The notes: generated by a model not told the origin, from the letters alone. Shown: positions 16,419-22,071, numbered from the stretch's first letter. The stretch: DNA of 64,000 nt from Spirochaetia bacterium (GCA_965198005.1 CBDAOI010000003.1:512001-576000), one strand, 5' to 3'. Translations and numbers: made by a program.

Positions 16419-16999
16419 TCAGGCGATGTCGTACGGAACGGCGATGATGATGGCGATCAGCATGCCATCCCGCTCGAGCACCAGATCGACCTCCGTGCCG
16501 GAGTGCACGCGCCAGTGATGGGCGCGCGGCGGATGCCGCATCGTCTGAGCCTGCTTGAGCAGATCGAGGACGACGTGAGTTTCGAACAGAGCGCCCTGAA
16601 TCGGATTCGACAGCAGGGCCGTGGGGCTGGAGATTCGCTGGGTCCACGCCGCCAGGCCGGTGTCGGCGCACAGGCCGACGAGACGCGCAAACAGATCCGC
16701 GTCTTCGACCGCGGCAACCCGGCGCACGTCGCGTTCGACGTAGGTCCGCAGGTAAGAGAAGAACAGATCGGGGAGAATCTCGTCGTCGTGGTCCAGGTGA
16801 CCGGGGAACCCGCCCCGCCAGAGGCGGCTTGCCAAGGTGGGCTCGATAGCGCGTTGCGGCAGCCGGTCGCACCCGCGCAACTTGGCGAGCGGGTTGGCGG
16901 CGAACAAGTCTTCAACCCACGTCCCCTGTGTCGTCCCCCGGTGGCAGCGCTCGGCCAACGCGAGAAACGGAAGATCGAGCACAGCCACTCGTCCGGCCA
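16419..16999 (-). pseudogene. Remnant of AAA ATPase + DUF4143 protein (5'-truncated, internally deleted)
   Basis: AGRVAVLDL, RGGFP, YLRTYVERDV, DTGLA, GALFE and EVDLVLE motifs. Walker A region is missing. Confidence 0.8.
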
Positions 17000-17381
17000 T
17001 GGGCGTAGGTCTCAAATTGACCGGTCGAGGCAGCACGGCCGTGTGCCAGCTCGACCATGCGCGGGCGCGGGCGCATCCCGCCGGCAGGTGGCGCGGCCGT
17101 CATGAACCGCCGGCCGGCGGCGGTTCCCAAAGCACGTCGAGCGCCGCCGCCAGGTCGAGCGACTCCCCGTACCACTCCGGCGTCGCCGTATGCGGGCCGA
17201 TCGTGATCCCCGCCTGCCGCAGCCGCGCCTCGGTCGGCTCCAGCGGCGCCCCCTCCCAGCGAGGCGCCACCGGCACCGCCGGCAGCGGCGCACCATCCGG
17301 CCGCCGGAACACAAGCTGCCCATCCGCGCCAGAGACCACCTGCAACCCCTCCTCGTGCACCGCCCGGTGGTGGTAGCGACA
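17000..17381 (-). repeat. Left arm of a 382-bp inverted repeat: 3' end of an HNH (DUF222/13E12-like) gene plus 100-bp tail
   Basis: Reverse complement of 20772-21153 with at least 4 substitutions. Encodes CRYHHRAVHEEG...FRRPDG...WYGESLDL. Confidence 0.9.
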
Positions 17382-17470
17382 CACGAGAACTAATGCGGTG
17401 CCCGGGGTAATGCGGAGTCACATGACCTAATTCCTTTAGGAATGGCTCTTGAGGCCCAGATCGCTGTGCA

Positions 17471-18463
17471 TTATCCCGGGGCCAGAAGCGAGGCGATCAG
17501 CGCGTCGGGCGCCTTGAATCGCCCGCGCCGCAGTTCCGGCGGCAGTACAGCTTCGACGGCCTCCAGCTTTTCGGTGGGGTCCACGCGCAGATAGACTTCG
17601 GTGGTGCGCACATCGGCGTGTCCCAGCCATAGGGCGACCTTGCGGATATCGCCGGTAGCCTGAAGCATGGTGAGAGCGCAGCTATGGCGTAACTGGTGGG
17701 GCGAGATCGGGCGTCCCGCCAGCGAGGGACATGCCGTCGCGGCTGCCCGCACGTGCTTGTCCAGGACGTACTCGAATCCGGCGCGGCTCATGGGCCTGTC
17801 GGTGGCGTTCAGGAACAGCTCCGGCACTGGATTCTCGCCGCGGACGGCGAGCCAGGCACGGAGGTCGGCGGCGGTTTGTTTCCACAGCGGGAGACAGCGC
17901 TCACGGCGGCCCTTGCCAAGCACTCGGAGACTCGCAGTTCCGCGCAGCGACAGATCTGCCACCTGCGCCGTCACCAGTTCGGACACGCGCAGAGCAGCAG
18001 CGAAGCAGAGATGGAGCATGGCGCGGTCGCGGATGCCGAACCGGGTGGTGGTATCGGGAGCGTCCAGGAGCGCGCTGATCTCGTCCATGGTCAGGTGGCG
18101 GACGAGCGGCTGATCATGGCGTTTGGTCGGGATGGCAAGGATCTGTCTGGCTTGGTCGAGCGCAGCCGGGTGGCGGAACTCGACATAGCGCATGAAGGCT
18201 TTCACTGCTGCCAGTCGGATGTTGCGGCTGGCCGGGCTGCCACCACGATCCACCTCGAAGTGGGTGAGGAAAGCCAGGATGAGCGGGGCGTCGAGGTGTT
18301 TGAGGTACAGCTGCGATGGTCTGATGCCGAGGCGATCGGCAGCGAAGATGAACAACAGCCGGAAGGCATAGGCGTAGCTCTCACAGGTATGGGGGCTATA
18401 GCCGCGCTGCACGGGGAGGTAGTCGCGCAGGAAGTCGGTGATCAGGGGAGCGATAGGAGTCAT
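17471..18463 (-). CDS. Tyrosine recombinase RitC
   Basis: LRVSE, GKGRRER, HQLRH, LGH and TTEVY motifs. Confidence 0.93.
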   Translation of the reverse strand: MTPIAPLITDFLRDYLPVQRGYSPHTCESYAYAFRLLFIFAADRLGIRPSQLYLKHLDAPLILAFLTHFEVDRGGSPASRNIRLAAVKAFMRYVEFRHPAALDQARQILAIPTKRHDQPLVRHLTMDEISALLDAPDTTTRFGIRDRAMLHLCFAAALRVSELVTAQVADLSLRGTASLRVLGKGRRERCLPLWKQTAADLRAWLAVRGENPVPELFLNATDRPMSRAGFEYVLDKHVRAAATACPSLAGRPISPHQLRHSCALTMLQATGDIRKVALWLGHADVRTTEVYLRVDPTEKLEAVEAVLPPELRRGRFKAPDALIASLLAPG

Positions 18464-19371
18464 GCCAACCTCCCGGCAACCAGGTTCTCGCCGGCCGTGG
18501 CGATGTCGGCCATCAATTCCGGCGTCGCCTCCAGGTACCAGTAGGTGTAGGCGGGGTTGGCGTGGCCGAGGTAGGTGGAGAGCGCGACCAGGTGGCGCGC
18601 CACTGATTCACGTCGGACCGCACAGCGTTGCAGGGATCTGGTGGCAAAGGTGTGGCGCAGATCCGCCAGGCGCGGGCGGCGCTGGCGGCCAGGAGCGATG
18701 CCTGTGAGCCGGATCACTTTTTGGAAGGTGGTACTGGCCATCGGGGTGGGGATGCGCCGGTGGTTCGCCGACACGAACAGATGGTCGTCGGCGATGGCGA
18801 CCCGCTGGCGCTCCTGCAAGTACGCAGTCAGAGCGTCGACCGAAGTCGCATGCAGCGGCACCAGGCGGCTCTTGGCGAACTTGGTTTGGCGGATGCGCAG
18901 GACAGCGTTGGGGAGCAGGTCGTCGAAGCGCAGGTCGAGTGCCTCCGAGACCCGCAGTCCGGTGGCCGCGATGAGCCCGATCAGGGTCGCATAGACGGGC
19001 CGGCGCAGCGCGTAGGAGCATGGCAGACGGTGCGCCGCCGCCAGCAGTTGGCCGATCTCAGCAGGCGTGTAGATGTAGGGTGGCTGGCGCACCACACGGA
19101 CATGGAAGTAGCGAGCTGGGGGTATCTCGTGGGTGGTGTCCTCGGCGTACAAGAAGCGGGCCAACAGGACAACGTCATGCAGTCGAACATGGCGCATGTG
19201 CGGCGAGGACGCCTGCGCTGCCCACGCCACGGCGGTAGTGGCGCGGACATGGGTGTCGCCCCTGTCGATGGCGAAACGTGCGTACGCCTGGAGATTGCGG
19301 GCTGTGTCCCGTAGCTTGTAGCCGAGGGTTCGCCGCAGTGCGAGATAGCGCTCTACGTGGTCGTTCAGCAT
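18460..19371 (-). CDS. Tyrosine recombinase RitB
   Basis: TGLRVSEA, TKFAKSRLVPLH, DLRHTFA and LSTYLGH..TYWY. ATG overlaps the RitA stop. Confidence 0.92.
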   Translation of the reverse strand: MLNDHVERYLALRRTLGYKLRDTARNLQAYARFAIDRGDTHVRATTAVAWAAQASSPHMRHVRLHDVVLLARFLYAEDTTHEIPPARYFHVRVVRQPPYIYTPAEIGQLLAAAHRLPCSYALRRPVYATLIGLIAATGLRVSEALDLRFDDLLPNAVLRIRQTKFAKSRLVPLHATSVDALTAYLQERQRVAIADDHLFVSANHRRIPTPMASTTFQKVIRLTGIAPGRQRRPRLADLRHTFATRSLQRCAVRRESVARHLVALSTYLGHANPAYTYWYLEATPELMADIATAGENLVAGRLA

Positions 19372-20605
19372 GATGGTGCCTCCGGCCACGGCTGGGCGAC
19401 CTCGCCCAGCAGGTCGAAGTCGATCTTGGCGTAGTGCGCGGTCGTGTTCGGGGAGCGGTGCCTCAGAACACTGCCGATACCGGCCAGGGACACCCCGCTG
19501 CGCAGCATGGCGGTGGCAGCTGAGTGGCGCAGCAGATGTGCGCCGTGGTGGGGCGCGTTGAACCTGCGCGACGTAGAGCTTTGCACACGACACCGGACAC
19601 GGCTTGTCGAGTCATCGGGCGGCGCGGTGCCACAGCCGAGATGAACACCCGTGCCACCGGCAACGGCGGTCGTCCGCGGCGCAGGTAGATCACGATGGCG
19701 TCGCCGACCTGCTGGGGAAGCGGCAGCCAGTATTGGCGCCGACCCTTGCCGCAGACGGCGATGCGCCCGTTCTGCCAGTCGATGGCATCGAACGTCAGCT
19801 CGGCGACCTCGCTGGCGCGCAGACCCAGCCGAGCGAGCAGGAGTACTACCGCCCGATCTCTGGCCCCAACTGCATCCTCATCGCTGCAGGCGTCGATCAG
19901 CTTCTCCAGATCCTCAGGCTCAAGGAACCGAGGCGTGGCGGCGAGTTGGTAGCACGCGAAGCGTGGCACCGCGTGCCGCAGGCCGTCGGAGCACTGCCCG
20001 GTGGCAGCGAGGAACCGCAAGAAGGCGCGCACTGCCGTAGCGATCAACTGAGCCGTTGCGACCTTATGACCGTCACACCGCGTTATCACGAAGCCGCGAA
20101 CAGCCGCGGCGCTGTAGTTCGCCGGAACAACTCCCAGAGCCTCGACGAAATCGGCTACGTAGCATTCGTAGCGGTCCATGGTGCTGTGTGTCACGCCCTG
20201 GTGTTGCAGCGTCCACTTCCGAAACTGCTTCAGCAACGGCCAGCGTTCGCTCGGCGGCAGTGGCTGCTGGGCAACCGCCAGGACGCCTCGCTCCCGCAGG
20301 AACCGGATGAACACCGCAGCGGCCGCCAGTGAGTTTCGGTTGGGACCCCGCTGATAGCGCACACGACCGTGCTCGGATAGCGAGGTCCGGCACGCCTCGT
20401 ATCCCGCCACGAACTCCTTATCAGTGAACGACTCCTCGGTGAGCCAGTCCGTCCATGCGGCCAAACAGCGCAAGATGAAACTGCGCGAGTTAGCCGGATA
20501 GCCGCGTTCCTGCAGCCAGTCTGCAAAGTCGTCGATGTAGGCGATCGCGGGTCCGGAACGGAGTCGCCGGCAAGTGATCGCCAACTTGAGGTGGTCTTCA
20601 AGCAT
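19365..20605 (-). pseudogene. Tyrosine recombinase RitA, frameshifted at about 19561
   Basis: LGLRASEV and GKGRR are in one frame; HLLRHS, LRH and TAHYAK are in another. Confidence 0.85.
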
Positions 20606-20771
20606 GGATGCCTCCTTGCTTGAAGGAGCGCGATAATGCGGAGTCTTGGCTACTGCAACTACCGGCTAGAACCGCCTGAACCCCATCAGATCAGCCATGC
20701 CCGCCATCTACTCCGCATTATCCCCGGCTCCGCATAGAGAACTAATGCGGTGCACCGCATTACTCAGTCTT

Positions 20772-21153
20772 TGTCGCTACCACCACCGGGCGGTGCACGA
20801 GGAGGGGTTTCAGGTGGTCTCTGGCGCGGATGGGCAGCTTGTGTTCCGGCGGCCGGATGGTACGCCGCTGCCGGCGGTGCCGGTGGCGCCTCGCTGGGAG
20901 GGGGCGCCGCTGGCGCCGACCGAGGCGCGGCTGCGGCAGGCGGGGATCACGATCGGCCCGCATACGGCGACGCCGGAGTGGTACGGGGAGTCGCTCGACC
21001 TGGCGGCGGCGCTCGACGTGCTTTGGGAACCGCCGCCGGCCGGCGGTTCATGACGGCCGCGCCACCTGCCGGCGGGACGCGCCCGCGCCCGCGCATGGTC
21101 GAGCTGGCACACGGCCGTGCTGCCTCGACCGGTCAATTTGAGACCTACGCCCA
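20772..21153 (+). repeat. Right arm of the inverted repeat: HNH gene 3' end (stop 21053) plus tail
   Basis: Mirror of 17000-17381. Confidence 0.9.
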
Positions 21154-22017
21154 AGCGAAGCTGAAGCGACGGCAGGAGGGAAGCCGCCGCAGGAGCCGGA
21201 AGCAGGACCGAAAGACAAGGACCAAGTGAACTTCACGGATGAAGAATCACGGATCATGCCGGGCGCGAACGGGGAGTTCATACAGGATTTCAACGCGCAA
21301 GCGGTGGTGGAGCAGGACAGTCACATGGTGGTGGGCAACCACGTCAGCCAAGCGGCCAACGACAAGCAGGAAGTGGCGCCGGCGCTGAACGAGTTGGGAA
21401 AGGTGGCAGACGAGCTGGGCAAGCCGGAGGCGCTGGTGGCGGATGCCGGGTACCACAGCAAAGAGAACGTGGAGCGGTGCGTGGAACAGGACATCGAGCC
21501 GTATATCGCGGGGAGCCGGGAACGCCACAACCGGCCGCTGGAAGATCGTCTCAAGGCACCCCCGGAGTGTCCTGCTGATGCGGATGCGGTGACGGCAATG
21601 CAGCATCGTTTGCAGACGGCTGAGGGGAAGGCGATCTATAGCAAGCGGAAGTCCACGGTGGAGACGGTGTTCGGGGTGATCAAGGAGGTGCTGGGATTCC
21701 GCCGCTTTCATCTGCGCGGGTTACGCGGCGCCGAGGGAGAATGGAGTCTGGTGTGCACGGCGTGGAATCTGAAGCGGATGTATGCTCTGGCAGGAGGATA
21801 AGTGGGATCAGTGGGTCCCGATGGTCGAGTTGTGGCGCCGGAACGGGCGCCGGAGCCACCTTGGAGGGTGTTGCTGGCATCACGACCTCCCGCAGGGCCT
21901 GCTTTGGGCACTCGACTGAGCGCAACCAAGCGCTGGCGAGCTAGGCGGCCGCCTACGGCGTTCCACTGGGCTCGCTCACTTCGTAACCCCGCGACCATGA
22001 CTCCGACAGGCTCCTAG
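21154..22017 (+). mobile_element. 3' remnant of an IS1182-family element (transposase fragment to 21801, end near 22014)
   Basis: DQVNFTDEESRIM, FNAQ, ADAGY, YSKRKSTVETVFGVIK and WNLKR motifs. Terminal CCGACAGGCTC followed by CTAG. Confidence 0.85.
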
Positions 22018-22071
22018 CGCCCCAAGACCGCCGCCGGTCGGCGCCGCGCTTGGCACATCCGGTCGGTTCGC

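Follow-up and report, generated by a model that had tools for sequence, protein, structure and literature searches.

A RIT element encoding three tyrosine recombinases occupies positions 17391-20736 of a 64,000-nucleotide stretch of a Spirochaetia bacterium genome (GCA_965198005.1, CBDAOI010000003.1:512001-576000; the window), where it is bracketed by the tails of two copies of a DUF222/HNH nuclease gene. Judged by these junctions and by those of related copies, one mobile element has inactivated another's nuclease by splitting the gene, and the RIT lineage is site-specific for DNA encoding N-L-x-L / x-C-x-x-H-H of HNH nucleases. We account for the locus by homing of the RIT to this HNH site, strand exchange within short spacers, and a rearrangement of two HNH copies that left a tail on either side, a combined explanation to which we assign a probability of roughly 0.75.

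The RIT proper is 3,346 bp long and contains three adjacent minus-strand open reading frames matching PF00589. The first, ritC (17471..18463), encodes 330 aa (PF00589, E 8e-30; PF02899) and is followed by ritB (18460..19593; PF00589, E 6.5e-21), which overlaps it by 4 bp, and by ritA (19365..20605, with its open reading frame at 19463..20605), whose PF00589 match covers profile positions 2-130 of 172 only and in whose product 226 residues precede the catalytic domain. RitC and RitB are 85% and 82% identical, respectively, to the corresponding proteins of a relative. The ends of the element form a 26-nt inverted repeat (88%), and in each end a 7-bp gap separates a 10-bp tip from its second copy; on the ritC side (17391..17418, plus strand) the 10-bp tip is TAATGCGGTG, followed by the gap and the second 10-bp site, and on the ritA side (20710..20736, plus strand) the second site and the gap are followed by a 9-bp tip, CTCCGCATA, at 20728-20736. 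The same end layout is present in 15/15 RIT copies compared (the window and 14 from relatives). By its gene trio with a short overlap, its size within about 3.3-3.5 kb, its terminal inverted repeats and the palindrome that adjoins it, the window element is a RIT; near-identical dispersed copies, a further RIT feature, are found for the lineage in relatives.

This genome holds only the one full copy, plus a 1,040-bp partial copy on contig C4 (99.7% identity to the window's), the ritC-side end of which adjoins an HNH front half at C4:818301 and the far side of which (C4:817248) is cut off by another repeat. In the assembly, ritA is frameshifted near 19561 (frame +3 to +2 against the relative), upstream of the part that aligns to RHS...HY of the relative's RitA, a stretch that we take to hold the catalytic residues. 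Contigs from four public runs have an additional base following 19561 that brings ritA back into frame, and it accounts for all of the covering depth in X19 and X24 and for about half in X20 and X22. The frameshift (window 19555-19565) may be an assembly error or a strain difference, and because the contigs of four runs carry the frame-restoring base, the element may be intact.

In order, the block consists of the tail of HNH copy 1 (antisense), GAGAAC, the RIT, GAGAAC, a 20-bp palindrome, CTCAGT, and the tail of HNH copy 2 (sense). The left arm (17000..17384, minus strand) runs from V-C-R-Y-H-H to the stop at 17100 and on through the 3' tail to the 3' terminal inverted repeat of the host element (17001-17020), and the right arm (20769..21153, plus strand) ends at the same terminal repeat (21133-21153). 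Together they make up the only long inverted repeat found (17000-17401 and 20752-21153; 402 nt, 97% complementary, 3,350 nt between). The first-pass annotation, made from the window alone, had described the arms as two inverted HNH-gene copies with at least four substitutions, and exactly four of 382 bases differ between 17000-17381 and 20772-21153 (17075 A/G, 17239 T/G, 17291 C/T and 17343 C/A). Its inward reading of both arms, as ...GGTAGCGAC, then ten differing nucleotides, then TAATGCGGTGC, was likewise reproduced; the ten nucleotides are ACACGAGAAC and AAAGACTGAG, they differ at 7/10 positions, and they are ordinary HNH codons (...V-L-V-C in the left arm, ...L-S-L-C in the right).

The two junctions, which had been treated as alike, are not equivalent, since one side carries an extra 20-bp palindrome and 6-bp spacer. 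On the right side TAATGCGGTGC, which had been taken for the left end of the RIT, is the outer half of the palindrome, and the RIT end, CTCCGCATA, lies 26 bp further in. The palindrome (20743..20762) is perfect; in it the RIT tip half-sites TAATGCGGTG and CACCGCATTA stand back to back, in that order. The left spacer GAGAAC (17385..17390) is the antisense of V-L codons of the HNH target, is probably the crossover segment, and is directly repeated at 20737..20742, between the RIT and the palindrome; the third spacer, CTCAGT (20763..20768), represents L-S codons of HNH copy 2.

The sequence in which the RIT is lodged is itself repetitive. The arm comprises the last 94 codons of the HNH gene, from C-R-Y-H-H, plus about 100 bp, and it occurs nine times at near full length in this genome. 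An intact copy of the gene matches PF02720 (DUF222; E 3.5e-16) and PF01844 (HNH; 22.3 bits against a cut-off of 21.4), and it sits in a unit of about 2.2 kb with terminal inverted repeats of about 20 bp (5', GGGTGTAGGTCTCGTATTGA; 3', the complement of GGGCGTAGGTCTCAAATTGA). There are at least nine copies of the unit, of 96-99% identity; units with terminal inverted repeats lie elsewhere in the genome at C4:75266-77473, C4:1537163-1539318, C3:421774-423856 and C1:255117-256923. A tRNA gene immediately precedes one copy. A second copy interrupts an ATPase gene whose reading frame is open throughout in two relatives (G005 and G006). The terminal inverted repeats, the number of copies and the split ATPase gene together argue that the HNH gene rides on a mobile element, and no clear target duplication was seen at the copies of the unit. 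Both window arms stop exactly at the 3' terminus of this element, and the DNA beyond is unrelated.

The two HNH genes of the window had been proposed to be cut at the same register just upstream of C-R-Y-H-H, and this cut recurs: five of the nine arm copies run on into HNH coding sequence, and the other four (the two in the window, C4:1899446 and C4:1168143) end at the same register. Front-half fragments of HNH genes start at the complementary position at C3:132165, C4:818301 and C4:115842. The left arm is 99.0% identical to the right arm and 98.7% identical to the copy at C4:1899065-1899446.

A DNA search for RIT relatives covered 61 genomes, including this one (G000), and gave matches in 12; parsing of junctions yielded 15 full copies, namely the window (L013) and 14 in five Spirochaetia relatives (G001, G003, G007, G018 and G020). 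The 14 copies are 85-89% identical to the window's RIT. Copies within any one of these five genomes are 99.3-100% identical though they lie in different HNH paralogs, which indicates recent movement; by this measure the lineage is active now or recently in the relatives. In ten of the 15 the RIT separates the front half and the tail of one HNH gene (L027, L038, L039, L040, L041, L030, L045, L046, L047 and L051). Tails stand on both sides in two (the window and L028), a front half and another element in one (L026), and inverted copies of another element in one (L037), and the flanks of the last (L029) are not assignable. A sixteenth copy (L052), the ritA end of which is interrupted, reads front half-GCCTTA-RIT...AAGTCT-palindrome-GCCTTA-tail. 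A 3-kb contig in a Chloroflexota bin (L080) encodes a RitC 91% identical to the window's, possibly through misbinning of the contig or through transfer.

These copies bear on the suggestion, made for the window, that the RIT recognizes a conserved site in a multicopy HNH element and splits its nuclease motif, and they uphold it: an HNH front half directly adjoins the RIT in 11/14 copies of the relatives, and 10/14 copies split one HNH gene at the same motif. The front-half peptides all end in ...GG(x)5-6-N-L-x-L, and the tails start with x-C-x-x-H-H. Five of the ten translated front flanks match Pfam HNH positions 3-35 of 47 (E 0.002-0.006), below the Pfam cut-off because the domain is truncated; one of the others matches DUF222, and four match nothing at E <= 0.01 (L038 probably in the wrong frame). 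Two HNH subfamilies, including non-DUF222 HNH genes, are struck at the same register. The alignments place the insertion point between the Asn and the last His of H-N-H, at about Pfam HNH position 35 of 47. The 6 bp beside the RIT tip are always x-L codons of a target, and the features common to the DNA are AAY-YTR, 6 bp, and NNN-TGY.

The target patch itself varies in this genome. About 20 nt at the RIT site upstream of C-R-Y-H-H (window 17372-17390 and 20763-20781) exist in at least five versions with many synonymous changes, and these versions occur in HNH copies that are otherwise 96-99% identical; an intact-looking copy from C1:255497 onward is 4 nt shorter at the site. The variable patch could represent scars of RIT visits, gene conversion or escape from the RIT. 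Among four close intact HNH copies, the target patch was not the most diverse segment, and three of the four share one patch.

The palindrome shows a consistent placement. Thirteen palindromes are present in 12/15 RIT copies (11/14 in the relatives), eight of them on the ritC side and five on the ritA side. Twelve of the 13 lie between the RIT and an HNH tail, one (L029) is not assignable, and none is beside a front half; in the copies compared, the palindrome thus stands on the target's downstream (tail) side, irrespective of which RIT end points that way. This genome has the 20-bp palindrome in only three places, each beside an HNH tail. A search for the pattern in the five relatives found 23 places, and a reversed-pattern control gave 0 in all five. 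Ten further palindromes in the relatives (G001:2017329 left out) all have an HNH tail on one side, and the far side carries a RIT-type end in eight, including two miniature RITs, and another element in two. Among these ten there was no case of an HNH gene intact save for a solo palindrome between its front half and tail, the footprint that excision would leave. The miniature RITs (L068, G001:1714499; L070, G020:C4:1070347) retain both ends, have most of the interior deleted, and lie beside a palindrome and HNH tail.

The two palindromes in this genome without a RIT (C4:1899481 and C4:1168179) have an unrelated insertion sequence on the far side without target duplication, and their original neighbor has therefore been lost. 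The insertion sequence measures about 1.1 kb, has inverted ends (TCTGGGGTATCC...) and is found at C4:1899482-1900328, C2:910104-911223 and C4:1377160-1378279; it has 8-bp target duplications at two places and none at C4:1899482, where it adjoins the RIT palindrome. What is left of its end lies after the palindrome, at C4:1168180. RIT ends and palindromes in G003 are similarly abutted by another element. A 34-bp palindrome with center GCCGAATTCGGC, belonging to a different RIT lineage, lies at C2:911224-911257 and C3:787238-787278, and the former adjoins a fragment of the 5' region of the HNH element.

The spacers provide clues as to how the element moves. L046, which lacks a palindrome, is a plain insertion bearing a 6-bp direct repeat, and in L040 and L047 the 6-bp repeat brackets the palindrome, spacer and RIT together. 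In three G007 copies, each in a different gene, the unit palindrome-GCCTTA-RIT is identical, and the target gene of L052, the fourth G007 copy, has GCCTTA as its own A-L codons. In L030, L041 and L051 the tail-side spacer is foreign to the gene; the spacer beside the element often matches a previous target, not the present one, as in these three. Spacers known on both sides are often reverse complements (CAATCT/AGATTG in G018, CAACTC/GAGTTG in G001 and GAGAAC/GTTCTC at C4:1899). As far as sequence can tell, these patterns, in L030, L041 and L051 as against L046, L040 and L047, fit carry-over of the 6 bp from the donor.

We propose that strands would be exchanged within the 6-bp spacers, each of which lies between two inverted 10-bp arms, as for Tn916, Tn554 and SE. 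The moving form would be a circle, and when a palindrome is included, its junction, tip-spacer-tip.tip-spacer-tip, would present two mirror-image core sites. Entry via either core would place the palindrome beside the tail with the RIT in either orientation, as observed. If the element left via the inner core, the palindrome would stay in place and the circle set free would lack one and could give rise to plain insertions such as L046; a palindrome left in the target would keep two half-perfect sites. The direct repeat of GAGAAC in the window could have arisen when a palindrome-less RIT circle entered the left spacer of a tail-palindrome-tail site. The left half of such a site is found unoccupied at C4:1899446-1899481, where an arm 98.7% identical to the left arm is followed by GAGAAC, the palindrome, and GTTCTC.

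A crossover at the center of the palindrome (13-6-13, lox-like) was also considered and rejected as the main site: every target would have to contain a palindrome beforehand, and two palindromes would be needed wherever one adjoins the RIT, and L046, L040 and L047 fit spacer exchange instead.

The presence of two tails requires a rearrangement between two HNH copies, because a single insertion leaves a front half and a tail. The left arm is adjoined by the 3' fragment of an AAA-ATPase/DUF4143 gene (16419..16999, minus strand; Pfam DUF4143), which is cut by the end of HNH copy 1. The best two matches in the genome to a 423-aa ortholog of this ATPase are residues 8-50 at C3:130395-130523 and residues 126-368 at C3:529000-528449, and the ATPase paralogs in the genome have 37% identity at most. 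The first piece adjoins the 5' end of an HNH front half at C3:130534-132165 (sense on the plus strand), which stops at ...TCT AAC TT, within a few bases of the RIT site; the second is the window fragment, adjoining the left arm (sense on the minus strand). Because the two pieces of the ortholog adjoin the front half and the left arm, HNH copy 1 once lay in the ATPase gene. Its halves are now 397 kb apart on contig C3 in opposite orientation, which fits inversion, and the tail-to-tail arrangement is best explained by an inversion of about 397 kb between two same-orientation HNH copies on C3. By its own sequence the ATPase gene was decaying; the fragment also lacks about 50 codons internally relative to the ortholog (the match is split into residues 1-113 and 105-184).

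An inversion broken at the RIT site would produce tail/tail at the window and front/front at the other breakpoint. Two routes could lead to it: the core of a RIT or of a palindrome may have recombined with another HNH target, or two RITs lying in opposite orientation may have undergone homologous exchange. L028 (G018), with palindromes on both sides, looks like the latter. Whichever the route, a RIT-associated rearrangement of about 400 kb of chromosome has probably occurred.

Several observations nonetheless weigh against the combined explanation. The reciprocal front/front junction was not found, the front half at C3:132168 running into other repeats, and there is no front/front RIT among the 15 copies. 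Between the two ATPase fragments 76 codons are missing, so that the original HNH insertion was not clean, and gene order around the ortholog in G005, compared by dc-megablast, is too scrambled to confirm the inversion. None of the data showed a circle, an excision product or the 4.15-kb block inverted through the arms, as had been suggested, the contigs from public runs being short and without such joints. The frameshift in the assembled ritA also counts here, as does a difference between the ritC-side tips, which is ...GGTG in the window, as in the palindrome, and ...GGAG in the partial copy at C4:818; exchange purely within the spacers does not predict this. Lastly, the arms are each other's closest copies, with four differences as against five to the next, which fits a local inverted duplication.

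Such a duplication would start from a single RIT insertion, the tail side of which was then copied in inverted form by fold-back or hairpin replication. Both arms, which differ at only four of 382 positions, would derive from one HNH copy, and the palindrome is of the kind that a replicated hairpin would leave. Long inverted flanks are also present at ten distant RIT loci (L090, L091, L110, L134, L140, L143, L145, L146, L147 and L151). A duplication is expected to overrun the host element, however, and the arms stop at the HNH terminal repeat, with the ATPase fragment beyond one and an insertion sequence beyond the other. Nor would it account for ten junction nucleotides that differ at seven positions, for the matching front half and other ATPase half 397 kb away, or for L028, the second tail/tail case, in which the tails are from clearly different genes. 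We therefore regard local duplication as unlikely.

That the 4.15-kb block is a mobile composite, in which a RIT has acquired its 382-bp terminal repeats from HNH, is far less credible still: although the long inverted arms resemble terminal repeats and some distant RIT relatives have long inverted flanks, the genome contains one full RIT only, the arm occurs seven more times without a RIT inside, and 10/14 copies in relatives have ordinary front/tail flanks. An assembly artefact, in which two unlinked RIT/HNH junctions were joined through a repeat, might be feared given arms repeated nine times and a four-contig assembly of 90% completeness, but is equally improbable, as contigs of two runs from two studies (possibly of the source sample) bridge the outer boundary at 17000, and reads longer than about 400 bp place both junctions unambiguously because the 3.35-kb RIT is unique in the genome.

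Among other features of the region and its relatives, an unrelated insertion sequence with a DDE_Tnp_1 transposase (21175..22018; four other copies, 93-95% identity) adjoins HNH copy 2. The ten distant RIT relatives with long, near-perfect inverted flanks are mostly from Alphaproteobacteria, and in L151 the beginning of one and the same small gene is seen in each flank, pointing outward.

Sister RIT lineages, with RitC 73-74% identical, interrupt serine-recombinase genes at about positions 118-121 of the 145 in the Resolvase profile, a target confirmed by Pfam for L103, L108 and L125 and recognized by eye only for L111 and L128. They have the same end layout, with the palindrome on the downstream half of the target. 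The sister-lineage records are from Paraburkholderia, Stellaceae and Terriglobia, and both small and large serine-recombinase genes are split, at an A-E-F/Y-E-R motif.

A broader reading is possible, if rather doubtful. RIT lineages would parasitize other mobile elements, each homing to DNA for a catalytic motif (H-N-H here, the serine-recombinase core in the sisters) by way of a circle with two mirror-image cores; the leftover palindrome would stay live and join the tails of different copies, driving large inversions and deletions, and the recoded HNH patch would reflect scars of, or escape from, the RIT. RITs are common in bacterial genomes. The present locus and the related ones provide a defined target (about 30 bp), near-identical copies that look active, and a set of junction types: plain, with a palindrome on either end, and tail-to-tail. 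Together the junctions predict the strand-crossing point and the circle junction, which makes the mechanism directly testable.

The RIT is a known kind of element, and the HNH target preference is new relative to the literature found. A literature search, the scope of which excludes Ricker 2013 (a paper that may describe targets or the palindrome), returned no paper combining 'RIT element' and 'HNH'. RIT elements were first described in Cupriavidus metallidurans CH34 (cited in a passage of PMC3414803; Van Houdt 2009 according to PMC10214605). The first-pass annotation had regarded target-gene preference of RITs as established; this does not agree with the table of a 2023 comparison of tyrosine-recombinase transposons, which lists RIT target specificity as not tested, and a passage of the same comparison states that RIT movement has never been reproduced in the laboratory (PMC10214605). 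Single RIT insertions in a Tn6049-type transposase gene and in radC are mentioned in the text of PMC3414803, as is an 'overlapping palindromic sequence' at the end of the element. RITs have also been reported to have palindromic ends and exonuclease-protected forms not demonstrable as circles (PMC5737581), and a section of PMC8138268 describes RitA with two core-binding domains and RitC with an extra C-terminal helix. The element studied here resembles known RITs, as portrayed in passages of PMC3414803, in its ritA-ritB-ritC order with short overlaps, size of about 3.3-3.5 kb, end repeats of about 28 bp and palindrome overlapping one end, and it also shares with them near-identical copies within a genome. 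It differs from the RITs described there in its Spirochaetia host lineage and in having as its target one codon position of HNH nuclease genes.

Comparison can also be made with other tyrosine-recombinase transposons. Tn554 and SEs bring 6 bp of adjoining donor DNA with them to the new site (PMC10214605), and spacers here likewise appear to be carried along. Unlike the window RIT, Tn554, SE and Tn916 have neither the recombinase trio nor the palindrome of back-to-back half-sites. The coupling sequences of Tn916 are 6-bp segments carried along in the manner of these spacers, and Tn554 uses one chromosomal site, whereas the RIT site encodes a protein motif in other mobile elements. The DUF222/HNH repeats REP13E12 of Mycobacterium tuberculosis are the attachment site of phiRv1, a prophage that uses a serine integrase, and in both systems a multicopy DUF222/HNH gene acts as the docking site for another mobile element. 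They differ in that the guest here is a 3.3-kb RIT, which also strikes non-DUF222 HNH genes at the same motif.

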